Part shown: piece by piece, positions 1 to 28,222 of the stretch | Layout: each line of letters starts with the position of its first letter | Position numbering within the stretch: the first letter of the stretch is position 1 | UHGV virus genome: UHGV-0119950 | Source of the DNA: a virus | Reading direction: 5' to 3' (one strand) | Length of the DNA stretch: 53,290 nucleotides | Program-made: the position numbers and the translations under genes | The notes under the pieces: model-generated | What the model was told of the DNA's origin: nothing | Database searches by the model: none | Seen by the model: the letters and a program-made list of their open reading frames with translations, nothing else

Positions 1-50
1 AAGCGCAGGCGCAGCGATAAAGGAAAAAGATGACGCAGTAATTTATTCAT
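1..50 (-). CDS. phoQ: sensor kinase PhoQ, first 16 codons only (gene runs off the window)
   Basis: Minus-strand ATG overlaps phoP stop (TAATG); translation [16 protein letters not shown] resembles PhoQ N-terminus as I recall it. Confidence 0.5.
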   Translation of the reverse strand, partial: MNKLLRHLFPLSLRLR

Positions 51-724: not shown

Positions 725-794
725 CTTTTCTCCCTAAATTAACGGTATTAGTAGTTTAACGCTGATTCTGTGGATTGAAACCAGCGCTATGAAA

Positions 795-2296: not shown

Positions 2297-2360
2297 GGTT
2301 CACCTCAGGTAACCGGCGCCAGTATAGATGCGCCGGTGTTGTGACATTGATAATTCGTTA

Positions 2361-2600
2361 TCAGGCAATCTGCCCTGGCAGTGCGCGCAGTCGGCGCATA
2401 CCTGTCATTGCGGTGGCGACATAGCTCTTATGTCGGTTAACAACTTCTACCGTCACCTTCACGCCGTCGACCGCCACGGTATAAGTGGTCTTTGTTTTCT
2501 GTCTGCCAAACTCCCCGTAAAGCTCAACATGTTTTGCCAGAGCAGCATCGCACGCCCTGCGCGCCAGCGGAGATTGCTTACTACGATTGATAAGGCGCAT
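2361..2600 (-). CDS. hypothetical early protein
   Basis: 79 aa ORF in early-left operon between recombination genes and xis. Confidence 0.4.
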   Translation of the reverse strand: MRLINRSKQSPLARRACDAALAKHVELYGEFGRQKTKTTYTVAVDGVKVTVEVVNRHKSYVATAMTGMRRLRALPGQIA

Positions 2601-2640
2601 ATAACCCCCTGTGACGGGAGGGCTGACCCTCCCGCCTCCC

Positions 2641-3750
2641 TTAGTTCACGTATTCCGGTTTCATGTCGTCAAGGGTGATGCGGAACTGGTCATACAGTTC
2701 TTCACCCAGATGACGTTTGGCAGCGCTGAGCGTATTTTCAGCTTTAGCGAACATCGCTGCGGCTTCCGGTTCGCTGGGATTTGGAAGTGAGTTGATCACA
2801 GCCTCGACCTTGTTCTGCGCATCGACCTGGTAATAACGTTTCACCGCCTTATTTTTCAGTTCGGTGAACAGCGCTGTGCCCAGCAACGCTTTCTGCGATT
2901 CGATATCCGCGCGGATAGCTTTGGCCTGGTCAACAGAGCTTGCTGTATCAATCCGGTCACGTAGATCGTCTGCAACGGCATCAACATTAGTTGCCGATTC
3001 CTGCGCGCTGGTCGTGGTGCTAACCTCGCCAGTGATTTCCTGTACGCTCATGCGCTGGACTGGCGCAGGGTTAATCTCGCGTTCTTCTCGCTGCTCAACT
3101 TCATCAGGGCTGTACACGCCGAGGATCACTTCCGGGCAGTACAGGCGAGCCCAATATTTAACGCCCAAATAGGCAATTTGCTGTTTAGGATTGGAAACCC
3201 ACAGCGGGGAATTGCGGGTAACAACGCCGGAGAGGTAAAGAGGTTCCCCCCAGGTGATTTCGGATTCACCGCGCAGGATTGCGCCAACCTGGACGAACAG
3301 GCCGATCTCGTCCTCATCCGTCCAGCCACGAACGCGTTCAGTGACGGTGTATTTGCCGTTTTTCCCGTTTTTATCGCGCGTAATTTCCTGTGTTCTGGTG
3401 CAGCGCTCCCAGTCACCTCCATAACGGTAATGAAAACGGCCATGAATGGCACTGGAACTGGCGATTACCGCGTTGACAAGTTGCGCCTCGTATCCAAGAA
3501 CACCGTTAACCAGATGCGTTTTTTGCGCCACCGCGTATGGGTTCATGCCCCACTGCATCGCCTGCATAACGATTGCCATGCAGTCTGCCGGTTTACCTGC
3601 CAGATGCGCCGGGACCGTCACCTGGGAGTCGGCCATCAGATTTGCGAATGCGGTTAACTGGCTCAGCGCCTGTACGTTAAAAATCGCGTTACTGGCTGAA
3701 ATGGTGTTTGGTGCCTGCTGTTCAGTGGTGACAATGCTGGTGTTTTCCAT
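2641..3750 (-). CDS. single-strand annealing protein, RecT/Red-beta family
   Basis: Start moved to ATG with RBS AAGGGGG (MENTSIV...). Segment MAIVMQAMQWGMNPY resembles lambda Bet LLIVANQYGLNPW; sits directly downstream of exonuclease gene. Confidence 0.7.
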   Translation of the reverse strand: MENTSIVTTEQQAPNTISASNAIFNVQALSQLTAFANLMADSQVTVPAHLAGKPADCMAIVMQAMQWGMNPYAVAQKTHLVNGVLGYEAQLVNAVIASSSAIHGRFHYRYGGDWERCTRTQEITRDKNGKNGKYTVTERVRGWTDEDEIGLFVQVGAILRGESEITWGEPLYLSGVVTRNSPLWVSNPKQQIAYLGVKYWARLYCPEVILGVYSPDEVEQREEREINPAPVQRMSVQEITGEVSTTTSAQESATNVDAVADDLRDRIDTASSVDQAKAIRADIESQKALLGTALFTELKNKAVKRYYQVDAQNKVEAVINSLPNPSEPEAAAMFAKAENTLSAAKRHLGEELYDQFRITLDDMKPEYVN

Positions 3751-3760
3751 GATTTCCCCC

Positions 3761-6700: not shown

Positions 6701-6796
6701 CGCTTCAAAATCATCGCTGCACCAGAGAACTGCATCTTTATGGCCAGATGATTTCTTTGCTTTGCGGACTAAAAATACAGGATTAGTTCCACTCAT
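3761..6796 (-). CDS. exodeoxyribonuclease VIII-like (RecE-like) with long acidic central region
   Basis: About 1011 aa from ATG with RBS GAGGA (MSGTNPVFLV...); large size, nuclease-like C-terminus and pairing with RecT-like gene. Track ORF start at 7003 would overlap upstream gene. Confidence 0.7.
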   Translation of the reverse strand: MSGTNPVFLVRKAKKSSGHKDAVLWCSDDFEAANATLDYLLIKSGAKLKDYFKAVATNFPVVNELPPEGELSLTFCDFYQLGKDNMTWVQIPGVTLPSSEAVAVARQRIVDGVDTETGEVLEDHTEDFGNEEVVDTETGEIIQHDQASTEDNGDLPEHPQLTVVATMPFRHRVLAQHIGDGEYLYHVDAEQKKAILALEMDTDNSYVQNLLLAAENVEPFKKAIEHDIHKAVNAVKSVFPADGKIPELASVIQFLKTWFDTPHIDRGLLVKEWCKGNRVSEINRTPSGANAGGGNKTDRLTPLTKTGLEYEIALGLIARNKEFDIYSPSFEIDVEANAIMNLSRSGEDNVLDEFIATCKLFEEMPGGMDYSRACNVATVKTTPEELFKSPFRHREYLNRVMTETDHAHPDEMIVDIACGRSSMPMPMAPAPEKVTSALELLREEVERQLAAGRGEFVPGISDPNDPKWVKTETSQQTEQPELVKKVADDIFDVSALMQNSSTHGTKQEAETTSDVQVQETVSDEKQTGDALRTSESDLGNGEEADTGEQADVDHNQSEVSQNNDSASHSEPEAQQEEPTPVWPEYFEPGRYEGVPNEVYHAANGISSTMVKDARVSLMYFEARHVSKTIQKERTKVLDMGNLVHALALQPEQLEKEFSIEPEIPEGALTTTATIRAVIDEHNASLPPLLSADDIKALLEEYNTTLPAPLPLGASVDESYASYEQLPEEFQRIENGTKHTATAMKACIKEYNATLPPQVKTSGSRDALLEQLAIINPDLVAQEAQKPQPLKVSGTKADLIQTVKTVKPETVFADELLDAWRENPGDKILVTRQQLSTAQAIQKALLNHPTAGKLLTHPNRAVEVSYFGIDEETGLEIRVRPDLEIDMGGLRIGADLKTISMWNIKQEGLRAKLHREIIERDYHLSAAMYCETAALDQFFWIFVNKDENYHWIAIIEASEELLELGMLEYRKAMRAIANGFDTGEWPAPITEDYAEELNDFDVRRLEALRVQA

Positions 6797-6920
6797 TATT
6801 TGATCCTCAATTCGTGTAGAATGGAGGCGCCTTAATGGCACCTCGGTTTTACCAGGTGATGTCCGGTGTAACTTTGGTCGGTGCCACCGGACGGAAGGCC
6901 CACCCTGTGTGGGCTTTCGC

Positions 6921-7208
6921 TTAATGAACAGTTCTGAAAACTTTTTCTGAGTAATCGAGTTTGTAGCTGCGGTAGTTGCCAAAACCGGCGTTATCGCCAT
7001 CACTTACTTTCACGGACAACATTGAAATTGCCTCTACAGCACAAAGAGGACAGTCGAACTTGCCGAATACATAGCCACCGTCAAGAATGACCGTGACCGC
7101 GCCCGTTTCGGCTGAATGAATAACGCCTGATACTTTCTTCTCGCAGTTGAATACAGCCAATTCTTTATTCACTGCTTTCAGGTTCATTTCGATTTTTGCG
7201 ATTTCCAT
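6921..7208 (-). CDS. hypothetical early protein
   Basis: 95 aa ORF in early-left operon. Confidence 0.45.
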   Translation of the reverse strand: MEIAKIEMNLKAVNKELAVFNCEKKVSGVIHSAETGAVTVILDGGYVFGKFDCPLCAVEAISMLSVKVSDGDNAGFGNYRSYKLDYSEKVFRTVH

Positions 7209-7295
7209 AAAACTTCTCCGGTTGTTAAATTCAGGGTGTAAGAATCCGCGCCAAATTTATGGCGAATTTTTTATTTCATATTTCAGGACTGCTGG

Positions 7296-7454
7296 TTAAC
7301 TTTCGTGCGCCATCTGATCGTATTCAGCGCATTGCTTTGAGCAGTATTCTTTTTCTTTGTTGGCAAGCCGGTTGCCATTGCGATAGAAAAGGATGCTCTT
7401 TACTTCTTTGCCTTCTTCAACGGGTTTGCGGCAGTAACCGCATTCTTTCTGCAT
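7296..7454 (-). CDS. small zinc-ribbon protein (CxxC...CxxxC), 52 aa
   Basis: Not in ORF track (<60 aa). RBS GAGGAGGGG upstream of ATG; translation MQKECGYCRKPVEEGK...YCSKQCAEYDQMAHES. Confidence 0.4.
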   Translation of the reverse strand: MQKECGYCRKPVEEGKEVKSILFYRNGNRLANKEKEYCSKQCAEYDQMAHES

Positions 7455-7463
7455 TACCCCTCC

Positions 7464-7649
7464 TCAGATGCTTGCTGGCAGCTCTCCGTTGTGAATGATT
7501 CCCTCAACAGGCCAGCACTCACCATTAACCTTTTGCTCGACAGCTGCGGCCTGGCATTCCTGCTGGTTGTCATATACACCGAGAATCACATCCTGAAAGT
7601 CACCGTTGGTCATTGCGACCGTTAATACCAGTGCGAATAGTTCCCCCAT
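7464..7649 (-). CDS. hypothetical small protein
   Basis: 61 aa ORF; start overlaps stop of upstream gene (TGATG), GGAGG upstream. Confidence 0.4.
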   Translation of the reverse strand: MGELFALVLTVAMTNGDFQDVILGVYDNQQECQAAAVEQKVNGECWPVEGIIHNGELPASI

Positions 7650-7777
7650 CAGTGAAGAGTCCTCCCGATTGCAGCAGCATAAATACGTTTTGCTTCTTCC
7701 CAGTCTTTAATGCTGTGGTGAGCCACTGCGAAGGATGCCTTGCGCTGTGCCTCCCGGACTTGCTGCTTGTTAATCAT
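7649..7777 (-). CDS. hypothetical small protein (42 aa, MINKQQVREAQRK...)
   Basis: Internal ATG of track ORF 7649..7954; ATG overlaps stop of upstream gene (ATGATTAA), indicating translational coupling. Confidence 0.35.
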   Translation of the reverse strand: MINKQQVREAQRKASFAVAHHSIKDWEEAKRIYAAAIGRTLH

Positions 7778-8114
7778 CGTTATCCTCCAGGTGCCCGTTA
7801 TCGCGAAGCCAGCTAATGACCTCGTCAGGAGAAAGACGATCCAGAATTTCCGGTAACTTGCTGTTATTGTCAGCCCAGTCGATGTAATCCGGCAGGTCGA
7901 TAGCGGCGAACAGCACATCGCTTTCGATTTCTTCCAGCACGTCATCCACTTCAACGCCGCGAATTTCAGTGTTCACAAAATCGCGATAACCGCTGGTTGA
8001 AACGTCAACTCCCTGCGCCTTGAGATCTAAATCAATTTTCATTTTCACCCTCTGCTTGCCGTTGTCGCCCGGCTGGCGGAACGTTTGATACCTGCTGCGC
8101 GTTAACTCATCCAC
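7770..8114 (-). CDS. hypothetical protein, first gene of early-left operon
   Basis: 114 aa acidic protein; N-terminal Arg content too weak to call an N-like antiterminator. Confidence 0.45.
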   Translation of the reverse strand: MDELTRSRYQTFRQPGDNGKQRVKMKIDLDLKAQGVDVSTSGYRDFVNTEIRGVEVDDVLEEIESDVLFAAIDLPDYIDWADNNSKLPEILDRLSPDEVISWLRDNGHLEDNDD

Positions 8115-8164
8115 CTCATCACCATCTTCATACGCCTGGTGCGGCTACTTCGTGGGCGTCCTGC

Positions 8165-8256
8165 CTGGGTGGTCGTGTTGCTGTGATATTGATTAAATCA
8201 CTGGTTTATAGTTGTGTCAACTTTGAATTGATGTTTGGTGTAAATTTTAGGTTTAT
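8165..8256. promoter_or_regulatory. putative left operator/promoter region (OL-like)
   Basis: Divergent intergenic region; GATATTGATTAAATCA (8185-8200) nearly matches GAATATTGATTGAAATA in the cI/cro intergenic region. Confidence 0.35.
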
Positions 8257-8526
8257 ATGTTGGGAGAGGGAGCGTGTGTTATGCTCACAAAAACATCAAT
8301 TGGCGAGGGCTGGGTGATGGATTACGAAGAACTGGCGCAACTGCGCTATCAGGAAATGTGCCGGATTGTGGGGGATGTCGTTTTTGCGATGGTGGCTGAA
8401 GGGCATGAAACCAAAAGAGTGGCTATAGCTGACGTGATACGAACGGAGATATCGAAGGGGCTGGATAAGTGGGATGCTGACCAGATTCAGGTTATGGAAC
8501 TGGCAGTGAAGTTTCTGGAAGAGTAG
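8257..8526 (+). CDS. hypothetical protein transcribed divergently from early-left operon
   Basis: 89 aa ORF (possible later start at MLTKTS); followed by strong terminator. Confidence 0.45.
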   Translation: MLGEGACVMLTKTSIGEGWVMDYEELAQLRYQEMCRIVGDVVFAMVAEGHETKRVAIADVIRTEISKGLDKWDADQIQVMELAVKFLEE

Positions 8527-8528
8527 GG

Positions 8529-8562
8529 CAATAAAAAACCCGGCTCGGTGGCCGGGTGTTTT
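8529..8562. terminator. bidirectional rho-independent terminator
   Basis: Hairpin CCCGGCTCGGTGGCCGGG flanked by A-run upstream and T-run downstream; ends both the 8257..8526 gene and the minus-strand cassette. Confidence 0.6.
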
Positions 8563-8954
8563 TAGTTACACGCGAATTTTATACCATCTAGTGTTGTGTT
8601 TTTAAGGATGTCTTCGGCATAAAATTTGAAGTAAACCCTCATCAAAGATGAAAAATACCAAGTATATTCCTTTAAAAAATCCTCATTGAGATTTTCGCTT
8701 TTTGGATAAGAGAAAATCATTCTAATGTCGATTTTTAGAGAAAAATCTGGTTTTTCACTGCCTTTCCTGAACCCTTGAGCGATGGGGCTTGCTGAAACTT
8801 TAATTGATGACATTGATGGATCGCCACCACCGACTTCAAAATCTAAGGCGCCATATACAACCTTGATCGTGCCCTCACCAGGTGTAAGCATGGTTTGATT
8901 GAACTCCACGTTTAGAATCGCAGATTCAACCATGTTGATATCGTTAGGCAACAT
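8562..8954 (-). CDS. hypothetical protein, cassette gene 3 of 3
   Basis: 130 aa; AT-rich; start overlaps stop of upstream gene by 11 nt; no recognisable motif. Confidence 0.5.
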   Translation of the reverse strand: MLPNDINMVESAILNVEFNQTMLTPGEGTIKVVYGALDFEVGGGDPSMSSIKVSASPIAQGFRKGSEKPDFSLKIDIRMIFSYPKSENLNEDFLKEYTWYFSSLMRVYFKFYAEDILKNTTLDGIKFACN

Positions 8955-9363
8955 TTATCTCATAATCCCTGTTTTGAGGCTTAATGGTAATCTTGATGAC
9001 TGGGCTTGGTTCGTCCATGAAACTATTTAAATTCATAACGTAGTGCTTATGAGCAGGTATAACAGGATGAGAAACATCACATCCATTCTTCAGGATTACT
9101 ACTTTTGCTTCGGCACCTAGAGCGTAGGAAATATCGGAGAGGGTTTTTAGTGTCATGTTCCTAGTTCCATCTAGCAACTGAGAAACATGCGAAGCCGACT
9201 TGCCAAGTTTTTTAGCAAGTTCACGCTTAGTTATACCTGTATCCTGCATAGCTAAAAGGATGTCTTCTGTAGTATTGAACACTAATCGTTCGGAAGCCAT
9301 CTCTCTATCACTAATGTATGGAAAACCAAAAATTTCTTCTGCGAAAGTCTTATCAGTAGTCAT
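8944..9363 (-). CDS. XRE-family HTH DNA-binding protein (antitoxin-like), cassette gene 2 of 3
   Basis: 139 aa; helix-turn-helix segment ITKRELAKKLGKSASHVSQLLDG; overlaps both neighbours. Confidence 0.6.
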   Translation of the reverse strand: MTTDKTFAEEIFGFPYISDREMASERLVFNTTEDILLAMQDTGITKRELAKKLGKSASHVSQLLDGTRNMTLKTLSDISYALGAEAKVVILKNGCDVSHPVIPAHKHYVMNLNSFMDEPSPVIKITIKPQNRDYEINVA

Positions 9364-9781
9364 CTAAACCTCTCTCGATTCTCTCCCAGTTGTTACAAAC
9401 TTTTTGGACATCAGAATCGCTTAAATCATCAAAATCTTTGTAGATGTAATGACTCATAAAATAAGTCATTGATACTCTCTCCGACTCCCAGTAGTACCCT
9501 CGAATAGGTATCTTCTTTATAGCCCAGAAATTTTTTTTAGGTTTGCCATTGTAAGAAGGCAGTATTCCTTCCTTTCTGACGCTGAGATCTGGAGTTCTTT
9601 TACCTGATGCCAGGCGCTCTATTTGTAGTCTAAGCTTGACCATCATGGCTTTTTGCTTCTTAGCAGGAGTAACACTCAGTATCGCATCAGCTAGAGTTTT
9701 TAGCGCTCCATTACAATGGGTTACAGTGAAGCAAGCGCCCTTAAAAGTATGTTGAACCATCCACTTATCCATAGTTAACAT
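9353..9781 (-). CDS. hypothetical protein, possible RelE/HigB-like toxin fold, cassette gene 1 of 3
   Basis: 142 aa; AT-rich; precedes an HTH gene in toxin-then-antitoxin order; toxin assignment is only by arrangement and loose pattern; start codon uncertain (no clear RBS). Confidence 0.45.
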   Translation of the reverse strand: MLTMDKWMVQHTFKGACFTVTHCNGALKTLADAILSVTPAKKQKAMMVKLRLQIERLASGKRTPDLSVRKEGILPSYNGKPKKNFWAIKKIPIRGYYWESERVSMTYFMSHYIYKDFDDLSDSDVQKVCNNWERIERGLDDY

Positions 9782-9875
9782 ATATATTAACTCACAATTT
9801 GCAAGTGAGCCACCTTCATCTTATAGAGATAATCCGAAAAGCATGATGGTTAGCAATTCATGTCCTTATCAACTC

Positions 9876-10031
9876 TCAAAGGGACATACCGATAACGGCA
9901 TTAACCACACTTGACGCCATAAACACGCCGCCAACGATGAAGCTGGCCTGGTTCTTCCTGGTAGCGCCAAGAGTCAACAGAACCACTGAAAGGGCAAAGA
10001 AAGGTATCGCGATTATGCTGAACGTGTTCAT
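9876..10031 (-). CDS. small hydrophobic membrane protein, 51 aa
   Basis: Not in ORF track. Translation MNTFSIIAIPFFALSVVLLTLGATRKNQASFIVGGVFMASSVVNAVIGMSL; two hydrophobic stretches; directly downstream of repressor gene on same strand. Confidence 0.4.
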   Translation of the reverse strand: MNTFSIIAIPFFALSVVLLTLGATRKNQASFIVGGVFMASSVVNAVIGMSL

Positions 10032-10043
10032 GTTGACCTCAAG

Positions 10044-10463
10044 TTATTGCGATTCTCCGTCACCCTTAATCCGTCGCCCCATGTACTTCGCGTACAGCTC
10101 GTCGAGCTCCTTCAGTCGCAGAGATACGATCCGCAACATGTTCTGCTGCTCTTCTTCCGGCAGCTGGCGATAGAGTTCCAGCAGGCGCTGCTCGTCAGGC
10201 TTCATACCATCTTTCTCGCCGACATCTTCCCCGAGCAGCCAGGCGACCGAAACACCAACAGCATCGGCTATAGCCAGTGCTGATTTTTTGCTAATAACGC
10301 CTTTTTTAAACCAGCTATTGACCGCCTGAGGCGAGACTCCGGCTATTCGCGCCATATCTGCTTTGGTAATGCCTCTGGCATAGACCTCGTTGAGTCGCGC
10401 TATCAATGCTTTGTTGGGTTCTTCTTTTCTCATTCTCTCATTGTAAATGGTTAGTTTACACAC
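10044..10463 (-). CDS. prophage repressor, CI-like HTH, no S24 peptidase domain
   Basis: 139 aa; HTH (ITKADMARIAGVSPQAVNSWFKKG); divergent from cro-like gene; too short for a LexA-like cleavage domain. Confidence 0.75.
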   Translation of the reverse strand: MCKLTIYNERMRKEEPNKALIARLNEVYARGITKADMARIAGVSPQAVNSWFKKGVISKKSALAIADAVGVSVAWLLGEDVGEKDGMKPDEQRLLELYRQLPEEEQQNMLRIVSLRLKELDELYAKYMGRRIKGDGESQ

Positions 10464-10534
10464 TCAATAAATTGAATATTGATTGAAATATAAATCTGTG
10501 GTTTACTTTCTTCGTTGATAGTTAGGAGAAGAAA
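10464..10534. promoter_or_regulatory. OR-like operator/promoter region between repressor and cro-like gene
   Basis: 71-bp divergent intergenic region with AT-rich repeated TTGATTGAAAT/ATTGAATATTG motifs. Confidence 0.45.
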
Positions 10535-10768
10535 ATGACAGCACTTGATAAAGCAATTAAGGCCGCTGGTTCAGCGAGAAAGCTAAGCATGGCACTTGGT
10601 GTAACCAGTATGTCAATTAGCCATTGGAAACATCGCGACAGAGGCATTGTGCCGCCAGATTACATATTAAAAATTCACAGCATAACCGGTGTTACTCCCC
10701 ACGAATTGCGCCCTGATCTGTATCCGAACCCAACGGATGGATTACCGGCGCAGGAAGCGAGGGCGTAA
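10535..10768 (+). CDS. cro: Cro-like HTH regulator
   Basis: 77 aa; HTH (SARKLSMALGVTSMSISHWKHR); divergent from repressor. Confidence 0.7.
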   Translation: MTALDKAIKAAGSARKLSMALGVTSMSISHWKHRDRGIVPPDYILKIHSITGVTPHELRPDLYPNPTDGLPAQEARA

Positions 10769-10770
10769 CC

Positions 10771-11313
10771 GTGCATTCAATTTCATTTCAACAAAATACC
10801 GGGTTTCCTCCAGCCACGATGATAAATCGCAATCAGCCTGATCCGGCGGATAAGCATGACCAGATTCGGGCTGCCGTTCGTGCGTGGTCGGCATCGCTGG
10901 ACAACCAGGACGTAGTCGCCGGGATCATCGTTGAAGAATGGGAACGGCAGGGCGGCGCCGGGCTGGATTTTCCTGACGACCTGAGCCGTAAGCGGCAGAA
11001 GCTTTTCCGCTGGCTGGACAGCGACACCGGATATGCGCGCGAAAACATCCGCCAGCTGACTCCGGCAATCCTGGCTGTTATGCCGCTGGAATTTCGTGGG
11101 CGCCTTATCGGACAGGATTGTTTCATGACGCGTTTTGCAGCGATGGAGAAGGAAATCAGCGAGGCGAAACAGGCCGTAATGTTGAATGCGCCAAAGCATC
11201 AACTGGTGAAAGAGGTCAGGGAAGGGATTGAGCATCTGCTGAATATGTTGCCGGATGATGCTGTTGTTCAGGTTCTGAGTGGTATCGCGGCCATAGCGCC
11301 GGGTGTCATGTGA
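10771..11313 (+). CDS. CII-like regulatory protein (possibly CP76-type)
   Basis: 180 aa ORF immediately after cro-like gene (GTG start); position matches lambdoid cII; family call from memory. Confidence 0.45.
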   Translation: MHSISFQQNTGFPPATMINRNQPDPADKHDQIRAAVRAWSASLDNQDVVAGIIVEEWERQGGAGLDFPDDLSRKRQKLFRWLDSDTGYARENIRQLTPAILAVMPLEFRGRLIGQDCFMTRFAAMEKEISEAKQAVMLNAPKHQLVKEVREGIEHLLNMLPDDAVVQVLSGIAAIAPGVM

Positions 11314-11576
11314 GGTTACCAGATGAATCATTTGGAGTTCATAGAAAAGCATGTCCGGGAAGAGTTGATCCGACAGGGCTTCACCGTAGCGGTGGCTCAG
11401 GGGGGGCATTTCAGGCCGTCGATATGTACAAGCGAATGAGCCAGGCAAGCAGAAAGGGGAGGATTTTTGATGATGTTTTACGTCACGCGAAATTGTGGGC
11501 AGAAAAACAAACATTACCGGCTGATCGGTTTGATTCAAAACGGGCTAAACGGGGCAGGCAACAGGGCTTGTTCTGA
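11310..11576 (+). CDS. hypothetical basic protein
   Basis: 88 aa ORF between CII-like and replication genes. Confidence 0.3.
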   Translation: MRLPDESFGVHRKACPGRVDPTGLHRSGGSGGAFQAVDMYKRMSQASRKGRIFDDVLRHAKLWAEKQTLPADRFDSKRAKRGRQQGLF

Positions 11577-11695
11577 AAGGGTGAAGACCGCTGTGCTCGA
11601 ACACAGACGGCCTTCGGGTGCAATTAGTTGCGTACTCATTGCGAGGTCATTATGACAAAGAGTTTTTCAAAACACCAGGCAAGGGAGGCATAGCT

Positions 11696-12694
11696 ATGTC
11701 GAATGTCGCCTACGCCGATTTTGCGGCGCGTACCGCCGTCAGGAGCAACCGGATGGAAAACCAGAAGACCGGATTCATCCCGTTGTACCGGAGTGTACTC
11801 AAGCAGCCCTGGTCAGAAGATGTTTACCTGCGTACGTTGTGGGATAACCTGCTTTTGGGCGCTGCCAGCCAGCCATACACAGCGAGCTTTAAAGGTCGCC
11901 AATGGCCGCTACAAACCGGACAACTGGTGACCACGGCGGCCGATCTGGGCCTGAAACTACGTGACAGAAAAGGCAACCCAACAAGCCGTGATGCTGTTGA
12001 GAGAATGCTGACATTTTTTGTGCGCGAAGGGATGATTTCCATTGAGGGGGAACGGCAAAGAGGGCGTGTGATCACGATCTCAAATTATGCCGAATATGCT
12101 CAAAAAATGGACAATTTACCCGCACAAACTTCCGCACATACCAGCGCACATATGACCGCACATGGCGAAGCCAGTAACGGCGCGGGTTTGGCGGCAGGTA
12201 GCGCACATGAAAGCGCACATACATCCGCACAAACAAGCGCACATCATGAACAATATATATTAAATACTAACGTATTTAATGTACGTCAGAGAATTTCCAA
12301 AGTTGTTCCTGATGCAGCAGTCCAGACTCCGAAAGGTGACAAGTGGGGGACATCTGACGATCTCCGTTGCGCAGAGTGGATGCTGGCACTGCGTGACATC
12401 ACCAAACCATCCCTGAAAAAACCGAACATGGCTGGCTGGGCGAATGACATACGCCTGATGCGCCAACTGGACGGACGCACCCACAAAGAGATTTGTGAGT
12501 TGTTCAGATGGGCCTGCAAAGACTCGTTCTGGTACAAAAATATTCTCTCTCCCGCAAAGCTCCGCGCCAAGTGGGACACGTTAACCCTTCACCGTGAAGA
12601 CACTACCCGCAAGCCACGCGCAGATGTCAGCGCAAGCAAATCCGAAACTGGCCCGCACTGGAACAGTGCTGAAGCATGGGAGAAATTTTTATGA
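11696..12694 (+). CDS. replication initiator, O-like (replisome organiser N-terminal domain)
   Basis: ATG with RBS AAGGGAGG; N-terminus fits replisome-organiser pattern; gene contains iterons and AT-rich tract; followed by P-like gene. Confidence 0.65.
   Translation: MSNVAYADFAARTAVRSNRMENQKTGFIPLYRSVLKQPWSEDVYLRTLWDNLLLGAASQPYTASFKGRQWPLQTGQLVTTAADLGLKLRDRKGNPTSRDAVERMLTFFVREGMISIEGERQRGRVITISNYAEYAQKMDNLPAQTSAHTSAHMTAHGEASNGAGLAAGSAHESAHTSAQTSAHHEQYILNTNVFNVRQRISKVVPDAAVQTPKGDKWGTSDDLRCAEWMLALRDITKPSLKKPNMAGWANDIRLMRQLDGRTHKEICELFRWACKDSFWYKNILSPAKLRAKWDTLTLHREDTTRKPRADVSASKSETGPHWNSAEAWEKFL
12121..12290. repeat. putative origin of replication: two clusters of four 12-bp iterons (CGCACA plus 6 nt) followed by AT-rich tract
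   Basis: CGCACA recurs at 12-bp period at 12121-12168 and 12202-12249, then CAATATATATTAAATACTAACGTATTTAATGTACG; encodes the TSAH peptide repeats in the O-like protein. Confidence 0.5.
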
Positions 12695-13386
12695 CCCCGG
12701 ATCTTTATCGTGCAATTCAGAATCGCGACAGCGAAATGCTATCGCGCATGGCTGGAGACTCTTACGACGGACGTAAGGTTGTTAACAGTGACGCTGAAAA
12801 GCTGGTGGATATGCTTTTTGAAAATCTCATGCAGGTATTTCCGGCATCCACTCAGACGAACCTACGTACTGGCGATGATATTCGCGTTGCAAAGCAGCAA
12901 TGGATCGCCGCTTTTGCTGAGTCAGGCATCACCTCCCGTGAGCAACTTTCCGCCGGAATGCAGAAAGCCCGATCCAGTCAGTCACCGTTCTGGCCGTCGC
13001 CGGGTCAGTTTATTTCGTGGTGCCGTGAGGGGAGTGGCGCGCTGGGAGTCAGTGTGGACGACATCATGAGCGAATACTGGCGCTGGCGGAAACTTGTTTT
13101 TCGCTATCCGACGAGTGAGCAGTTCCCCTGGAGGGATAAAAACCCGCTGTATTACCACGTCTGCCTGGAGCTGCGCCGTCGTGGAACGGAGGGGCAACTC
13201 AGCGAAAAGGAACTTATCCGGGCCGCTGGCGACATCCTGCATGACTGGGAAAAGCGTGCTCTTGCTGGCAAGCCCATACCACCTGTTCGTCGCGCTATAG
13301 CCGCGCCTTCGCAGGATCGTGGGCCAACACCAGCCGAGCTGTTAATGGCGAAGTACAAGCAGCGTAAAGACGCCGGGCTGATTTAA
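12691..13386 (+). CDS. replication protein P-like helicase loader
   Basis: Matches lambda P as I recall it (FPAS, RQWVLAFRENGIT vs QQWIAAFAESGIT, PFLPSPGQFVAWCRE vs PFWPSPGQFISWCRE); ATG overlaps O-like stop. Confidence 0.8.
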   Translation: MTPDLYRAIQNRDSEMLSRMAGDSYDGRKVVNSDAEKLVDMLFENLMQVFPASTQTNLRTGDDIRVAKQQWIAAFAESGITSREQLSAGMQKARSSQSPFWPSPGQFISWCREGSGALGVSVDDIMSEYWRWRKLVFRYPTSEQFPWRDKNPLYYHVCLELRRRGTEGQLSEKELIRAAGDILHDWEKRALAGKPIPPVRRAIAAPSQDRGPTPAELLMAKYKQRKDAGLI

Positions 13387-13402
13387 CGGGAGGAGAATAA
13401 CG

Positions 13403-13714
13403 ATGGCAAGCAAATCACTGTGGGCAATTGTTGATTTCCTTCGGGAAAACCAGACCATCACGCCGCGACAGGTTCAGAACCTGCTGGGATGTGACTGCAA
13501 GAAATCTCACAACCTGTTGCTTCACCTGACGCGCAAAGCGGTAGTGATCCGTACAGGCGAGCCGCATCACCCGGTCTATTCGCTGTTGCCCGGCGGAGAA
13601 CTGAATATCAAGCGCTTCAAATCGACCGTGAGAAAAAACATGGTCTCATCCGTTTGCCGAAACAGTGCGGCGATGAAGCGAATTTTAATGGTTTGGGGGA
13701 GGGCATCAGCATGA
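13403..13714 (+). CDS. hypothetical protein
   Basis: 103 aa ORF with RBS GGGAGGAG. Confidence 0.4.
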   Translation: MASKSLWAIVDFLRENQTITPRQVQNLLGCDCKKSHNLLLHLTRKAVVIRTGEPHHPVYSLLPGGELNIKRFKSTVRKNMVSSVCRNSAAMKRILMVWGRASA

Positions 13715-14280
13715 AATCAACGGTAGAAACAAAAATCATTGAGTTAGTGAAGTCAGGGCATGAGCTGGCGAAAGAACTGCATTGTGCTGAGTCTGCCGCG
13801 CTGGTGAACTATCTGGCAACGCAGCTTGAAGTGCATTTTGCCCGTAGCAATGCGCTGGCTGCAAAACTGAGCATGATTAACGACCTCATGGATGCCGCTG
13901 AACAGGCCAACAAACTGGCGCAGGAAGCAACGGAAAAACTGGTACAGGAGCGTGACGCTCTGGCTGCGGAACTAAGCGCAGTTGAGTCCATTCACAACGA
14001 TGCAGTATTCATCACTGACGAGCACTATGAGCAATGCCCGCGAGAAGTTCAGAAGATAGTTCGATCGCTGGCTGTGTTGCAGATACCTGCTTACGACTCT
14101 TTCCTGGATGAAGTGCGGGCGCATGACCTTAACGCCTTCATTCAGCATCACAGTGCAGAACTGGATGCGCATATTAAAAACGGTGGTGAGCAGTTCGACG
14201 AAAAATCAGTACGCATCAGAGACATCATCGTCTCAGTTCGCTTGTTCATGGATCAACTTCGCAAAGGCGGTGCAGCATGA
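13711..14280 (+). CDS. hypothetical coiled-coil protein
   Basis: ATG at 13711 with RBS GGGGAGG, overlaps upstream stop (ATGA). Confidence 0.45.
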   Translation: MKSTVETKIIELVKSGHELAKELHCAESAALVNYLATQLEVHFARSNALAAKLSMINDLMDAAEQANKLAQEATEKLVQERDALAAELSAVESIHNDAVFITDEHYEQCPREVQKIVRSLAVLQIPAYDSFLDEVRAHDLNAFIQHHSAELDAHIKNGGEQFDEKSVRIRDIIVSVRLFMDQLRKGGAA

Positions 14281-14825
14281 AACCAACATTAACGGCAGAA
14301 TTGCGAAGGGAACTGCATAAATTGGCAACTGACGCGCACGAGTTGGGCATCATCAAGCGGTATTCGAAGGGACTAGAGGCGCAGAGAAAATTTTACGCTG
14401 CTGCAACCCCTCTGGTTATTCGCGCGCTGCTGGATGAGCTGGAAGCGCTCCAGTCTTTCCGTACCGCATTCAATGAGTGGCACGATAAAACAGAATGGGT
14501 GCAGACGGATAAGCGGCTTGACGTCATTAAGCCGTGGGGTAAGCACCGCGCCGACGTTCTGAAGCTCTATATCGATCACCTGGAATCAAAGCCGGAAGCC
14601 AAAGAAGAACAGCGAGCTAACTGGTTTCATATGGCGCAGAAGTTAGGCGAGAATTTGGACGCCGCAGAGAAGCGCATAGCAGAACTGGAGGCGAAATTAG
14701 CTAACCCCGTGCTGCTCCCGAAAACAAACGGCTACTGGACTGAGCAAGAAAAGGCGTATGAAGAAGCCATTATGTTCGCTAAGCGGCAGGTTCGTCTGGC
14801 TGGATTCAGTGTGGAGGACATGTAA
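14277..14825 (+). CDS. hypothetical protein (Ead/Ea22-like early protein)
   Basis: 182 aa helical ORF; start overlaps upstream stop. Confidence 0.4.
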   Translation: MKPTLTAELRRELHKLATDAHELGIIKRYSKGLEAQRKFYAAATPLVIRALLDELEALQSFRTAFNEWHDKTEWVQTDKRLDVIKPWGKHRADVLKLYIDHLESKPEAKEEQRANWFHMAQKLGENLDAAEKRIAELEAKLANPVLLPKTNGYWTEQEKAYEEAIMFAKRQVRLAGFSVEDM

Positions 14826-15067
14826 TGGCTATTTTTATGGAAGTACGTTGTGCAGGTCGCGGTGATGTTGATGGTTGCCATTCTGACCAGAACGCCGAAC
14901 CAATGACGACAGCACATGAAAGCGTTAAGGGTGTTTCTACGGCGCTGAAATTTCTTAAAGACGATTCACTCAATAACGGCTGGGTGTTGCACAAAGGTGA
15001 GCTTTATTGCCCGGCATGCGCCGAAGCAAAAGCATGGGACGCCGCTGGCATCGGTAAGGGGGAGTGA
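14825..15067 (+). CDS. hypothetical protein with C-terminal CPAC motif
   Basis: 80 aa ORF. Confidence 0.35.
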   Translation: MAIFMEVRCAGRGDVDGCHSDQNAEPMTTAHESVKGVSTALKFLKDDSLNNGWVLHKGELYCPACAEAKAWDAAGIGKGE

Positions 15068-15069
15068 TA

Positions 15070-15254
15070 TGAAACGAGAAATTATTACCGTCACCCGTCC
15101 TGGAAACTGCTGCCCAGGGCATGACAAATACCCATGCGAAAAATACAGAAACAGACGCTCTGTTCGCCAGCGCGCTATCGGTATTAAAAAAGAACATCGC
15201 CATGTGCGCAGGAATATGCGTCAGGAGTTGCTTTCAGTTATAGGTGAGGACTAA
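15070..15254 (+). CDS. hypothetical small Cys-rich basic protein
   Basis: 61 aa from internal ATG (MKREIITVTRPGNCCPGHDKYPCEKYR...). Confidence 0.35.
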
Positions 15255-15257
15255 CCC

Positions 15258-15536
15258 ATGACCACTATTACCAGAGAGCTTATCGCCGCATATCTTAACG
15301 GCGAAGTTAAAACGCTCACTAACAGCGAACAGAAAGAGCTGGCGCGTATCGCGCTGGCATCGCTGGACGATGAAATAAAACTACGCCCTGTAGGGGTTAT
15401 GAGCGAGTCAGCCTTTCATAGGCTTGAACGCAGCGAGTCACGTTTTATTGCGCTGTGGCCTCGTCCTGGTATCTTTTTGCCGCGCCCACGTCCAGACGAT
15501 GGCGTTATCGTTTATGCAAAGGTTGAGGGTGCGTGA
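15258..15536 (+). CDS. hypothetical protein
   Basis: 92 aa ORF in tightly packed early operon. Confidence 0.4.
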   Translation: MTTITRELIAAYLNGEVKTLTNSEQKELARIALASLDDEIKLRPVGVMSESAFHRLERSESRFIALWPRPGIFLPRPRPDDGVIVYAKVEGA

Positions 15537-15772
15537 TGGCTATTGCATCAGGATATTCCATTGACGCCTATTGCGACTGCGAACAATGCGTAAATAACAT
15601 CGACCCAGTTGGTCGTTGGTGCCGTCAAGAAATGATCAGCGCAACCGGAGAGTCTTACGCAGAATGCGCTGCGCTAATCCGTAGCTATGGCTGGAAGTTA
15701 AGTCGCAACAAGATGCATGCGTTGCACCTGGGCATAAAAAACCGAAATCATGGAGTAAATTATGACAACTAA
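15536..15772 (+). CDS. hypothetical Cys-containing protein
   Basis: 78 aa; ATG overlaps upstream stop. Confidence 0.4.
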   Translation: MAIASGYSIDAYCDCEQCVNNIDPVGRWCRQEMISATGESYAECAALIRSYGWKLSRNKMHALHLGIKNRNHGVNYDN

Positions 15773-16337
15773 CAACCACCCGGCGCACGGCCCGCTCTCA
15801 GATTACCGATTGCACTGCATTCGTGAAATCTTGGGCAAAGCAGCAGCACAAAGAGACGGCGGTAATCTCGGTTACGCAATGTCTGATGCTGTGAAAGCGT
15901 TTGATGAACTGCTGGAAGTGCGCAAGGCGGAGCCGGTTGCTTTCATCAATGGAGCGTGGACGCTGGTTTATTATCGCCCGCCGAAAGAATCTGGTCTGAA
16001 GATTGGCGATAAGCTCTACACCGCCCCGCCAGCGCCTGTAGATAACACGTTCATCCCCAAAAATCTGGACAGAGCGCTCGGCGTGGTTGGCGTGGCGCTA
16101 CCTGAGTCGAAAGAGGAGTTTAATTTCCAGATTGAGCGCTGGATACAGCGACTGATTGACCGTGTTATTCGTTACTCCGATGAATTCAAAGAGCAACCAG
16201 CACCAGTAGTGCCACCAGAGCAAAACTGGGAAGAGTTATGCCGACAGCATCCAGACATGAGCATCGGTGATGCCATTATTCGCGCTGCATGGTGGAATCT
16301 TTGCCGCGCCGCCATGCTTCAGGGGGATAAATCGTGA
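15762..16337 (+). CDS. hypothetical protein
   Basis: 191 aa ORF. Confidence 0.45.
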   Translation: MTTNNHPAHGPLSDYRLHCIREILGKAAAQRDGGNLGYAMSDAVKAFDELLEVRKAEPVAFINGAWTLVYYRPPKESGLKIGDKLYTAPPAPVDNTFIPKNLDRALGVVGVALPESKEEFNFQIERWIQRLIDRVIRYSDEFKEQPAPVVPPEQNWEELCRQHPDMSIGDAIIRAAWWNLCRAAMLQGDKS

Positions 16338-16825
16338 AAACTATCCAGTTATCTGAGCGTGAGCTTTTCATGATTTTCAACATGCTGACGCCGCCCTACG
16401 CAGTCAGCGACACCCACACAGACGAGTTCAACGAATTGCGTAACAAAGTCTTTTACGCTCTGCGTGATGCTCAGAACGATGAACCTGTAAGTAATCGTGA
16501 TGAGTTGCCGCTGGACTATCTTCAAGGCCACAAAGACGGACTTGAGTGGGCTGCACAACTGGCTGAGGCTAATCACCCACAAACCGGCGATTGGCTTTAC
16601 GATGACCCGACAGAGCTTGCAAAGGCGATACGCAAGGGGCCGGATATGCCATTACCCAATGGCAACTCTCCGGTGATTCCGAATGGTTGGGTAATGGTGC
16701 CTGTTGAGCCAACAGAAGCGATGATTAACGCTTACAGAGGTGCACTTTATTCAGGGGAGTCGGCTGTCTCCTGTATTGATTTGTACAAGGCCATGATTGC
16801 AGCAGCGCCACAGCAGGAGGAATGA
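16334..16825 (+). CDS. hypothetical protein
   Basis: 163 aa ORF, GTG start overlapping upstream stop. Confidence 0.45.
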   Translation: MKTIQLSERELFMIFNMLTPPYAVSDTHTDEFNELRNKVFYALRDAQNDEPVSNRDELPLDYLQGHKDGLEWAAQLAEANHPQTGDWLYDDPTELAKAIRKGPDMPLPNGNSPVIPNGWVMVPVEPTEAMINAYRGALYSGESAVSCIDLYKAMIAAAPQQEE

Positions 16826-25911: not shown

Positions 25912-26271
25912 ATGAAAGTATTACAAACATTAGGCGGTTACCAAGGTGGTCAGGCCGGGATTTTTCAGTACAAAAGGAATAGCGATGGGGTAGTTATTGA
26001 TCCTACCGTCGGTATGAATGCTAATGCGGAAATCATTGAGATTTCTAACGATGATTGGAGTGGGATGATTAATCGGTTAGAAAACATTGGCAAGAAAGTC
26101 GTTGATTTGACGGAGATAAAACAAGAGATCGCAGATGAGCTCGGGATGAATAACACTGAGACTGCCGCCGTGGTTGCTATATTGGAACACGAAGGAACAT
26201 TCGACCATTATGGCGGATTTATCGGTGGCGGGGAGTCAGTTTCAATTCATCTACGTAGGGATGATGACTAA
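25912..26271 (+). CDS. hypothetical protein
   Basis: 119 aa from ATG with GGAG upstream; lower GC than surrounding lysis genes. Confidence 0.4.
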   Translation: MKVLQTLGGYQGGQAGIFQYKRNSDGVVIDPTVGMNANAEIIEISNDDWSGMINRLENIGKKVVDLTEIKQEIADELGMNNTETAAVVAILEHEGTFDHYGGFIGGGESVSIHLRRDDD

Positions 26272-26295
26272 TTCAAGCTGGTTTTAAGGGGACAG

Positions 26296-26319
26296 GCCTC
26301 GAATTCGCGAGGCTTTTTA
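26296..26319 (+). terminator. rho-independent terminator
   Basis: GCCTCGAATTCGCGAGGC hairpin followed by TTTTTA. Confidence 0.55.
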
Positions 26320-26366
26320 TTGCCATCACCATGGGCAGACCCATCGTAATGGCGAAATCACAGTAT

Positions 26367-26573
26367 TTATCGATATAACCGACCAAGTGCCTTAATGGCT
26401 GCGATTCTAATCTCTATATCATCACTTTGGCTTAATTTGTGTAGTTCCTGGGTAATGTTATCCGCTTGGCATCTACCTTCGCCTAACGCATAGATTGCAG
26501 CAAGTTTGATGTCTTTTGGCTGGGTCATCATCTGCAACAAAAGCATGTTAGCTATTGGTTGCGGCATGCTCAT
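26367..26573 (-). CDS. small HEAT-repeat-like protein (68 aa)
   Basis: ATG with RBS AAAGGGAA (MSMPQPIANML...); repeats AAIYALGEG and AAIKALGRL resemble HEAT/PBS-type repeats; AT-rich. Confidence 0.4.
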   Translation of the reverse strand: MSMPQPIANMLLLQMMTQPKDIKLAAIYALGEGRCQADNITQELHKLSQSDDIEIRIAAIKALGRLYR

Positions 26574-26687
26574 ATTTATTCCCTTTAATGAGATAAACAC
26601 TGGTACTCACAGACAAGCTGGAAATGTGCTGTTGCGAGTACCTCATCGGTTTAAACGTGCATATACGTTTAACGCATATGCCAGTAT

Positions 26688-27125
26688 TTATGGATTTCCT
26701 AAGATTATCGCGTTATCTATACGATCCCAGCACTCAGTAAAATCAAACACCTTTTTTGCACTCGATACTGAGCCCCAGTGCTCCTTGAGATTCATAGCGT
26801 GGCGGTAAGTGGTTGCGATCGGATAGTCATGGTAGCCTTTTTCGTCAGCCACGATCGCGCGAGTTCTACCTTCGTCAAACCTTGTTATGCCATCGCGAGA
26901 AATGTGCATTATCGATGGGTTTAGCTCTCCGCCGTGCGTCATCCATTCTCTGATAGAAGTCAGTTTGGTGCTTATTGGGTCGTACCCATCCTCTTTGAAT
27001 TGAGCCAAGGCAACTTCTTTTGCCCAAGCACTGTTAACGATAAGAATCACTGCCTTATCGCTTTGATCTGAATTTTCGCAAATATTCCAGATTTTTTTAT
27101 AGGCGGGAGTTACACATCTAATCAT
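26688..27125 (-). CDS. hypothetical protein (145 aa), AT-rich moron
   Basis: Internal ATG with strong RBS AAGGAAG preferred over track TTG start at 27167; no recognisable motif. Confidence 0.45.
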   Translation of the reverse strand: MIRCVTPAYKKIWNICENSDQSDKAVILIVNSAWAKEVALAQFKEDGYDPISTKLTSIREWMTHGGELNPSIMHISRDGITRFDEGRTRAIVADEKGYHDYPIATTYRHAMNLKEHWGSVSSAKKVFDFTECWDRIDNAIILGNP

Positions 27126-27235
27126 TGTTCTTCCTTTTCTATCAGCCACTGGAATCATTATCGTCAATTCACTGAGAAAGCTTAAGCGTATTTCACTTTA
27201 TGGCGACCATCGAATCAAAATAACGGAGTAAAACA

Positions 27236-28222
27236 ATGGCAAAACCGGACTGGGGCGAGCTTCAGCAACGGTTCCTGTCCGACAATGCCGCTACCGGCGT
27301 ATCACCGAAGGATTGGTGTGAAGCGCAGGGACTGAATTACGCAACAGCCCGCCGATACATAAAAAGACCAACTGCGCAAAAACCTGCGCAGAAAAAATTG
27401 CGCACTGCGCAAAAGGAAAAATGCGCAAAAGAGTTGGTGGATGATGACGGTCTTACTGCTCAGCAGCGTTTATTTGTTGCGGAGTACCTGAAGGATAACA
27501 ATGCCACGCAGGCTGCCATTCGTGCCGGGTACAGCAAGAAGACTGCTGAACAAATTGGGTATCAACTTCTTCAGAAAACTTCAGTTGCGCAGGCAATTGC
27601 GCAGCAGCAGAAAGAATCGTTAATGCGCACACTCGGCAGCGCAGACGAGGTGCTTGCGCAGATGTGGCAACTCGCCACTTTCGACGCAAATCAGCTTTCG
27701 CAATATCGTCGTGGCTGCTGCCGCTACTGCTGGGGCTTTGGTCATCAGTATCAGTGGCGTGACGCAGTTGAGTATGAAGAGAAGCGACTCGAAGCGATTG
27801 AACGCAAACGTCGCGAGCCTGAGGACGTGGGCGGATATGGATATGACCATACGCAGGAACCAAATCCTGATTGCCCGCGCTGTAATGGTGATGGCATTGG
27901 TCAGCCGTTCTTTGCCGACACGCGCAAACTGGCACCTGATGCTGCGCTTGCCTATTCCGGCGTTAAGCTCGGCAAGTACGGCGTTGAAATTACCGCGATA
28001 AGCCGCGAACGGATGTTTGAAGCCGTAATGAAGCGCCTCGGCCTGGCAGACAGTGAATTTGCTCAGCGCCTGCAACAATTGGAAATTGAACGACGACAAT
28101 TGGAGGTTGACAAACTTCGATGGGAGATAGCCCTGGATAAAAACCCAGCGGGATTTGAAGAGGATTATCAACTTCAGCCAATAACTCCCGATGAGGAACC
28201 TCCAGATGATCCAATCCTCTAA
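27236..28222 (+). CDS. terminase small subunit
   Basis: 328 aa; segment LTAQQRLFVAEYLKDNNATQAAIRAGYSKKTAEQIGYQLL typical of TerS; immediately upstream of TerL. Confidence 0.75.
   Translation: MAKPDWGELQQRFLSDNAATGVSPKDWCEAQGLNYATARRYIKRPTAQKPAQKKLRTAQKEKCAKELVDDDGLTAQQRLFVAEYLKDNNATQAAIRAGYSKKTAEQIGYQLLQKTSVAQAIAQQQKESLMRTLGSADEVLAQMWQLATFDANQLSQYRRGCCRYCWGFGHQYQWRDAVEYEEKRLEAIERKRREPEDVGGYGYDHTQEPNPDCPRCNGDGIGQPFFADTRKLAPDAALAYSGVKLGKYGVEITAISRERMFEAVMKRLGLADSEFAQRLQQLEIERRQLEVDKLRWEIALDKNPAGFEEDYQLQPITPDEEPPDDPIL

Follow-up and report, generated by a model that had tools for sequence, protein, structure and literature searches.

The window analysed here, the whole of the virus genome UHGV-0119950 (53,290 nt), is a lambdoid prophage of Citrobacter (koseri/sedlakii-type), and its late region runs from a Q antiterminator through two holins (Phage_holin_8 and Phage_holin_3_7), a GH19 endolysin, and spanin-like genes to the small (TerS; 27236-28222, Terminase_2) and large (TerL) terminase subunits and the portal protein. 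Between the spanins and TerS lies a block of low GC content (0.43, compared with 0.50-0.52 in the flanks) that comprises three genes: a plus-strand gene for an ORFan of 119 amino acids (aa) at 25912-26271, and two minus-strand genes, which encode a 68-aa HEAT-repeat protein (26367-26573) and a 145-aa protein (26688-27125). The two minus-strand genes are our subject. The 145-aa protein is predicted, from sequence and structural modeling, to be a ParB/sulfiredoxin (Srx) protein resembling the plasmid-encoded factor Osa, here in a phage context, and the HEAT gene encodes an uncharacterised microprotein that is common on IncI plasmids.

Both open reading frames (ORFs) and the ribosome-binding site (RBS) that the initial annotation had given to each of them were confirmed. 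The 145-aa gene starts with ATG at 27125-27123, preceded by AAGGAAG at 27136-27130, and the HEAT gene is preceded by AAAGGGAA at 26586-26579. Comparison with homologues yielded ratios of nonsynonymous to synonymous substitution rates (dN/dS) of 0.20-0.22 (145-aa gene) and 0.08-0.25 (HEAT gene), indicating purifying selection, and synonymous sites were saturated in distant pairs. Because each has an RBS and a dN/dS well below 1, both minus-strand genes are real. Their orientation opposite to the flanking lysis and packaging genes is likewise as first described, with the holins, the GH19 endolysin, TerS (Terminase_2), and TerL verified by Pfam. The region was also said to be much more AT-rich than its surroundings; its GC content is indeed lower (0.429 versus a window mean of 0.502, sd 0.045 in 940-nt windows), but this is a modest dip at the 8th percentile, and the AT-rich block begins at ~25850 and so takes in the 119-aa ORFan too.

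No family in Pfam, PHROGs, PADLOC, or NCBIfam recognises the 145-aa protein. The earlier statement that it has no recognisable motif thus holds for family libraries, but not for structure. The segment FDEGRTRA and the strand that follows it resemble the DGxHR motif of ParB and Srx, and this was the starting point for fold tests. A first AlphaFold2 model built on seven sequences (pLDDT 71) had Osa, pNOB8 ParB-N, SerK, sulfiredoxin, SbnI, PadC, and KorB as top structures. The AlphaFold2 model with a pLDDT of 93.9 has the characteristic alpha/beta fold of the ParB/sulfiredoxin superfamily; it consists of this N-terminal fold only, as a single domain with short extensions. The helix-turn-helix (HTH) and the C-terminal dimerisation domain of canonical ParB clamps are not in the model, and no parA lies nearby. 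Foldseek searches of viral models (BFVD) returned ParB/Sulfiredoxin proteins, none of them close (best E 6e-4), and profile searches of Protein Data Bank sequences gave chance matches only with seven sequences and, with 17 sequences, a marginal best match to SbnI across the DGxHR motif.

The GxxR motif of the 145-aa protein is G86-R87-T88-R89, and G86, R87, and R89 are invariant in the 17-sequence alignment. The clade that includes the window protein has GRTR, and a distant clade has GRHR, as in canonical DGRHR. This motif (Box II, or P-motif) aligns with DGvHR of SbnI and GMTR of Osa; it is the phosphate-binding motif of ParB and of the ATPase toxin ToxB (bioRxiv 10.64898/2026.05.05.722872). 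Osa shares the G-x-T-R variant (FTDGMTRS, versus FDEGRTRA in the window), followed by FPVLS/YPIAT and LAEHVG/LKEHWG, and hhalign aligned the family profile with Osa of R388 over 39 columns around the motif (P 0.005). The ParBc model (PF02195) matched neither the window protein nor any of the 17 members, even at E values up to 5. PFIN (PF22162) was the only Pfam model to recur: nine of the 17 members matched it (best 23.4 bits, E 8.5e-5), all under the 27-bit threshold, whereas Osa of R388 scores 69.5 bits; the window protein itself had no PFIN match. A distant member, P0060, bears the NCBI name 'ParB N-terminal domain-containing protein' and adjoins a gene resembling those for type IV coupling proteins in a Paraburkholderia element, the only family member in such a position. 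The 145-aa protein therefore represents a new and very rare ParB/Srx clade, a sister of PFIN that lies outside PFIN by the Pfam criterion.

Osa is reported to inhibit transfer by acting on coupling proteins (PMC5696584) and, according to the statement in PMC4619093 that cites Maindola 2014, is an ATPase and a DNase through its Srx-like site. The SerK, SbnI, and sulfiredoxin type of protein would suggest a different activity, namely an ATP-dependent phosphotransferase or modifier that reprograms a host metabolite or protein, which would make the gene a host-physiology moron like pid of phage P22 and no weapon. We consider this unlikely: Osa is the closest solved structure, better both in score and in coverage (110 aligned residues, compared with 73-85 for proteins of the SerK/SbnI/sulfiredoxin type), the only recurrent Pfam signal is PFIN, the catalytic Cys of Srx is absent (G-R-T-R), and the extra C-terminal substrate domain of SerK and SbnI is missing.

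The 145-aa family is very sparsely distributed. Only six homologue clusters (61-92% identity) were found in 5.8 billion proteins, and an exhaustive HMMER scan recovered 11 representatives in 1.84 billion. Searches for related loci with the seven-sequence alignment showed that, among the 185,579 species representatives of GTDB, only Citrobacter sedlakii NBRC 105722 carries the gene (100% identical), and that an identical copy is present in five IMG/VR prophage contigs; tblastn against 50,697 deposited phage records gave no real match. In all, the gene is present in ~20 other phage contigs, and the context, here and in these ~20 loci, is a prophage at the junction of lysis genes and terS. Two records (L001, positions 1-16438, and L002; ENA ERZ27285069 k141_7879 and Logan SRR5240533) hold a 61%-identical homologue. 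The element in which it lies adjoins flhA and also contains AlpA, a primase/DUF927 protein, PerC, a truncated terS of the Sf6 type (76 aa), a tape-measure protein, and a fragment of a minor-tail protein; it is either a satellite-like element or a decayed prophage.

In all recovered loci of the 61-93% identical homologues, the start codon of terS lies 75-110 nt from the 145-aa gene, in divergent orientation. Such constancy could speak for a packaging accessory factor that works with TerS, for example by recognising or cutting pac, and ParB-like nuclease domains are common near phage terminases (general knowledge and the BFVD matches). The terS genes in question, however, belong to at least four unrelated families, and in L001, L023, L025, and L047 only a truncated terS remnant is left; the working terminase of L023 is of the Nu1/gpA type and lies 1.3 kb away. 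Moreover, the 145-aa gene runs antisense to the late operon and is lacking from most relatives of these phages, and none of the 50,697 phage records has a match. We regard a role in packaging as very unlikely, and the comparison of terS types, remnants, and terS scars led us to reject it: the gene travels with 5' fragments of terS that serve as homology anchors, which explains its adjacency to terS.

These fragments became visible in the DNA that the window shares with other carriers of the 145-aa gene, which extends from 27254 to 26601 at 86-91% identity. It ends in a 57-nt tail (26600-26656, plus strand) that separates the 145-aa gene from the HEAT gene and is more conserved than the 145-aa gene itself. 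The tail reads LVLTDKLEMCCCEYLIGLN on the plus strand and spells MALTDKQEMFCREYLIDLN in the direction of terS. Taken together with 17 nt of 3' flank, the L023 copy (8453-8509) corresponds to the first 58 nt of terS as annotated in the Cronobacter phages ES2 (98% identity) and phiES15 (93%). Because the tail corresponds to the 5' end of terS, with a start codon decayed to CTG in the window and a frame with stop codons in L021, this stretch is, to judge from its sequence, a scar left when a packaging module was replaced. Phages P22 and BTP1 have the same scar, directly upstream of pid and divergent from it (2001-2057 in both loci, L030 and L031; the window copy is 84% identical over 57 nt). It is present in every locus with a 145-aa gene and also upstream of a solo HEAT gene of Pantoea, at a distance of 50-80 nt.

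The terS origin of the tail may account for its conservation. A structured RNA was considered as the cause and rejected; a hairpin is predicted in the window, L023, and L001 but is lost in L021, where the tail is a decayed terS pseudogene. Across many phages, the scar is ~85-100% identical, even where the synonymous sites of the adjacent gene are saturated, which might be due to gene conversion with live terS genes, to use of the scar as an anchor for recombination, or to a function in an untranslated region (UTR). In P22, the scar overlaps part of the pid 5'UTR that is reported to yield a processed transcript.

A second, shorter scar lies on the other side of the 145-aa gene. The divergent intergenic region between the 145-aa gene and terS (27126-27235) contains the RBS of the 145-aa gene, a candidate promoter (see below), and a 9-nt stretch, ATGGCGACC (27200-27208), which is the start of an Sf6-type terS; the Sf6-type terS genes that adjoin the 145-aa gene in L021, L049, L050, and L052 begin with these nine nucleotides at the same distance. 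They form the first 9 nt of a mini-ORF, ATGGCGACCATCGAATCAAAATAA (27200-27223), just upstream of the RBS of terS, as a second scar layer.

Sequence comparison thus identifies the lysis-terminase junction as a recombination hotspot, bounded by terS 5' scars that stem from exchanges of packaging modules. It has two positions for cargo: slot A, between the live terS and the 57-nt scar, holds the 145-aa gene, and slot B, behind the scar, is the position of P22 pid and is filled by the HEAT gene in this prophage and by many unrelated genes in others. The HEAT gene can be assigned to this pid slot because pid of P22 and BTP1 is preceded by the same terS scar. At the lysis-terS junction of different phages, each of the two minus-strand genes is found sporadically and irrespective of the other, as a presence/absence polymorphism. 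The initial annotation of the region as a moron insertion is well supported by the comparison: the genes are horizontally mobile, present or absent among relatives, located at the lysis-terminase junction, and oriented against late transcription, with the HEAT gene at the position of pid. Slot B may be an accessory or defence hotspot. Its cargo includes a trypsin-like protein in L023 (9068-9922), for which PADLOC gives the defence candidate PDC-S45 (E 3e-19), and, in L051 (6540-7151), a 192-aa protein with a weak HEPN-like motif, RNNLAH (E ~0.007); the remaining slot-B cargo consists of ORFans.

The same comparison separates the two minus-strand genes, which had been proposed to form one module. 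The gene that follows the 145-aa homologue differs in nearly every locus, and at least 11 unrelated genes take this place in other phages. It is the HEAT gene in Citrobacter, a 143-aa gene in L001, a 96-aa gene in L022, a 74-aa gene followed by the trypsin-like gene in L023, a 216-aa gene in L025, a 77-aa gene in L026, and further unrelated genes in L046-L052. Conserved co-occurrence of the 145-aa and HEAT genes across lineages was not found; the HEAT gene is mostly solo, in prophages and on IncI plasmids. An obligate two-gene system was rejected in view of the varying followers and the solo HEAT genes, and the proposed module is not supported; lineage-specific functional coupling in Citrobacter prophages is possible.

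The arrangement could nevertheless be read as a toxin-immunity or abortive-infection pair, in which the 145-aa protein would be a ParB-fold ATPase or nuclease toxin like ToxB from systems for contact-dependent inhibition, with the HEAT protein as its cognate immunity protein or antitoxin. There is precedent for ATPase toxins that have a ParB fold and a small immunity gene downstream (ToxB-iToxB; bioRxiv 10.64898/2026.05.05.722872). The 145-aa and HEAT genes are neighbours on one strand with no terminator between them and are always together in the Citrobacter prophage lineage, and a conserved gene followed by a variable small gene gives a superficial likeness to polymorphic toxin loci. Yet 145-aa homologues that are 84-93% identical have unrelated followers, and toxins so alike would need the same antidote. 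Furthermore, a terS scar separates the two genes, and this scar precedes P22 pid without any 145-aa gene, while the HEAT gene is found alone in prophages and on 1,215 plasmids and the 145-aa family is very rare. Taken together, we find a toxin-immunity pair distinctly improbable.

The HEAT-like repeats noted earlier in the small protein were substantiated by a Pfam match to HEAT_2 (PF13646) above threshold (31.0 bits, gathering score 27.7). Its two repeats, LAAIYALGEG and IAAIKALGR, are invariant or nearly so in 21 homologues and carry an A-x-x-A-L-G signature. Searches recovered 44 homologue clusters. An identical protein is annotated in Citrobacter koseri, and many Citrobacter genomes have the same synteny (TerS, the 145-aa gene, the HEAT gene, the 119-aa gene, spanins, endolysin, and holins). 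In prophages of Pantoea and Enterobacter, solo homologues lie where the lysis genes meet terS, and tblastn found no copy in the 50,697 phage genomes. Against PADLOC, the protein gave only weak, repeat-level matches to giant HEAT-ARM proteins (E 0.003-0.01).

Homologues were also found on plasmids: genes whose products are 74-79% identical are present on 1,215 plasmids, 1,201 of them conjugative, of the IncI1/Igamma/K types and including ColIb-P9, where the annotation is HEAT-repeat protein only. On IncI plasmids the gene is solo and convergent with excA, in the variable gap between trbA and excA near the Hok/Gef and DqlB toxins; the trbA-excA region of IncI plasmids is described as highly variable (RD1/RD2). 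In the plasmids TY474p2 and ColIb-P9 (L019 and L029), a convergent hairpin is common to the HEAT gene and excA, and the type I toxin genes nearby are those of Hok/Gef pndA and DqlB. In the literature that we found, no HEAT-repeat gene is linked to IncI1 functions, and a search there for an IncI1 gene with an experimental name at this position, with ibfA, pifA, and exc in mind, yielded none.

The alignment of the window with the IncI plasmids extends 49 nt upstream of the HEAT start codon and thereby 22 nt into the terS scar, and the shared stretch includes GTGAGTGCCAT, the reverse complement of the terS start ATGGCACTCAC. As the plasmid copy retains ~22 nt of the terS scar, it is likely, to the extent that so short an overlap allows, that IncI plasmids captured the HEAT gene from a phage. 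The presence of the gene in temperate phages and in IncI plasmids of the same hosts suggests that the target of the protein belongs either to the host cell or to enemies that the two kinds of element share. With 68 aa, the protein amounts to little more than two helical hairpins, from which we infer a role in binding or sequestering.

This distribution also bears on the proposal that both genes are functionless ORFs which hitch-hike through linkage to a recombination hotspot. Neither a known family nor a phenotype is associated with them, and the rarity of the 145-aa family would fit. But a dN/dS of 0.08-0.25 with saturated synonymous sites in distant pairs, the invariant motifs, the confident fold prediction for the 145-aa protein, and the retention of the HEAT gene on more than 1,200 plasmids make absence of function extremely unlikely.

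Upstream of the 145-aa gene we noticed, by eye, a candidate sigma-70 promoter with the -10 element GATAAT (27162-27157) and the -35 element TTAAGC (27185-27180) at a spacing of 17 nt. Other phages with the 145-aa gene match this intergenic region at 86-91% identity, and the positions of the -10 and -35 elements are kept in diverged homologues, which argues for TTAAGC-17-GATAAT as a putative promoter. Since there is no terminator between the two genes, they would probably be co-transcribed from this promoter in the present prophage, and expression may take place in the lysogen.

Immediately 3' of the stop codon of the 145-aa gene, a 21-bp near-palindrome, CATATACGTTTAACGCATATG (26660-26680), folds as a 10-bp hairpin in the minus-strand RNA. 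It is present in L026 and L046-48, perfect in L047 and L048, and cleanly absent from L023 and L025. A small inserted element and an operator-like site are two possible readings.

A terminator scan and RNA folding placed two hairpins in the convergent 3' boundary of the cassette (26294-26353). The terminator that had been proposed there for the minus-strand genes is a hairpin (26294-26315), but its T-tract is on the plus strand, an orientation that fits termination of the 119-aa gene; in the minus-strand direction, CUGUCCCCUU comes next, with no U-run. A second, stronger hairpin (26322-26353, GCCATCACCATGGGCAGACCCATCGTAATGGC; fold z = -4.75) lies between the first one and the HEAT stop codon, and it too has no U-tract on the minus strand. 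A stretch of 37-47 nt from here (26311-26357) is 96-97% identical at the same junction of Salmonella phage vB_SosS_Oslo and a prophage of E. coli GF43, and the second hairpin seems to mark the 3' boundary of moron cassettes as an element that they share. The junctions of Oslo and GF43 are likewise convergent, with post-lysis genes facing minus-strand morons. Apart from this match, megablast searches with the region returned nothing from phages or E. coli genomes, and Rfam returned nothing credible (RsaH, 23.5 bits, threshold 50). The 119-aa ORFan, on the late strand 3' of the spanin genes and within the same low-GC block (GC 0.435), had no family in Pfam, PHROGs, PADLOC, or NCBIfam and no tblastn match among the 50,697 phage records, and it is kept together with both minus-strand genes in Citrobacter prophages.

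Our preferred explanation, held tentatively and at somewhat less than even confidence, is that the two genes are independent morons stacked in the hotspot, the 145-aa protein being a nucleoside triphosphate (NTP)-dependent conflict effector and the HEAT protein a protein-binding factor. By analogy with Osa, the 145-aa protein would bind and hydrolyse a nucleoside triphosphate through its invariant G-R-x-R. It would act alone, in the lysogen or early after infection, and its target may be a competing mobile element, such as a conjugative plasmid, phage, or satellite, of which it would attack the DNA or the machinery that handles it. The HEAT protein would act as a mini-scaffold for protein binding, sequestering or modulating a protein of the host or of a rival, and would be useful to temperate phages and IncI conjugative plasmids alike. 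The two genes may have the role in defence or host interaction that was first suggested for them.

Several observations weigh against this explanation. The ParB/Srx fold also serves kinases (SerK and SbnI), a reductase (Srx), DNA clamps, and a toxin (ToxB), and the fold alone leaves the activity unfixed; in the 145-aa protein the His of the motif is replaced by Thr, as in Osa. A consensus scan called no sigma-70 promoter at this locus, neither protein had a convincing match among the defence models of PADLOC-DB v2, and within the lineage of Citrobacter prophages the 145-aa and HEAT genes always adjoin each other. A bolder version of the idea would make the 145-aa protein the first phage-borne Osa-like factor, an NTP-gated ParB/Srx nuclease that blocks the DNA-transfer or packaging motors of rivals, with the HEAT protein as a modulator of such factors or a counter-measure to them, and with the 145-aa gene and the terS scar as marks of an undescribed hypervariable hotspot for accessory and defence genes, the pid slot, in lambdoid and P22-like phages. 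We would not expect this version as a whole to hold, and give it a small chance.

Should the Osa-like reading be true, prophages would join conjugative plasmids as users of fertility-inhibition effectors with a ParB/Srx fold, which would add a phage-plasmid axis to the conflict among mobile elements; the known uses of the ParB-CTPase fold outside partition would also gain a new, though very rare, branch. Whatever the function, the scar-bounded hotspot links P22 pid, Citrobacter prophages, and other enterobacterial phages, and the HEAT gene on IncI1 plasmids, with its ~22 nt of terS scar, is consistent with gene flow from phage to plasmid. The HEAT microprotein is encoded next to excA by a near-core gene of clinically important IncI1 resistance plasmids, and any role that it has would reach wide.

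Among characterised systems, the fertility-inhibition factors Osa, FiwA, and ICE1056Fin (PFIN, PF22162; PDB 4ovb) are the structural reference for the 145-aa protein, which is only 14% identical, is shorter than Osa (145 versus 189 aa), and differs in its N- and C-terminal elaborations. The PFIN factors are encoded on conjugative plasmids, whereas the 145-aa gene resides in prophages at the lysis-terS junction. ToxB resembles the 145-aa protein in having a ParB fold without HTH or dimerisation domain, a GxxR motif (GNHR, versus GRTR/GRHR), and a small gene downstream; however, ToxB forms the warhead at the C-terminus of a CdiA protein, and its cognate immunity gene is fixed, while the follower of the 145-aa gene is variable and a scar lies between the two. 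The protein is also similar to the short, single-domain phage proteins with a ParB-CTPase fold that were surveyed in PMC12704722 (~100-150 aa, essentially the fold only). That survey was seeded with PF02195 at the Pfam threshold, and the 145-aa family falls outside the surveyed set because it does not match PF02195.

In location, the lambda genes bor and lom are comparable as accessory genes between late-gene blocks that have a lower GC content than their flanks and are present or absent among relatives, but they encode envelope proteins with known lysogen phenotypes and mapped promoters, and the 145-aa and HEAT proteins are cytoplasmic. A close counterpart of the locus is pid of P22 and BTP1, which has been characterised as a minus-strand moron; its promoter is weak, its 5'UTR long, and its terminator a hairpin (PMC3573128, PMC8835761). 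It occupies the same slot as a minus-strand accessory gene between the lysis genes and terS, next to the same terS 5' scar, and forms its own transcription unit against the late operon, as the two window genes may do, and both loci have a hairpin at the 3' end; the promoter, the 174-nt 5'UTR, and the terminator of pid were mapped experimentally, whereas the elements in the window are predicted. P22 has no 145-aa gene, and Pid, a derepressor of the host dgo operon directed at DgoR, is unrelated in sequence to both the 145-aa and the HEAT protein, such that the two loci share the slot and its scar but differ in their cargo.

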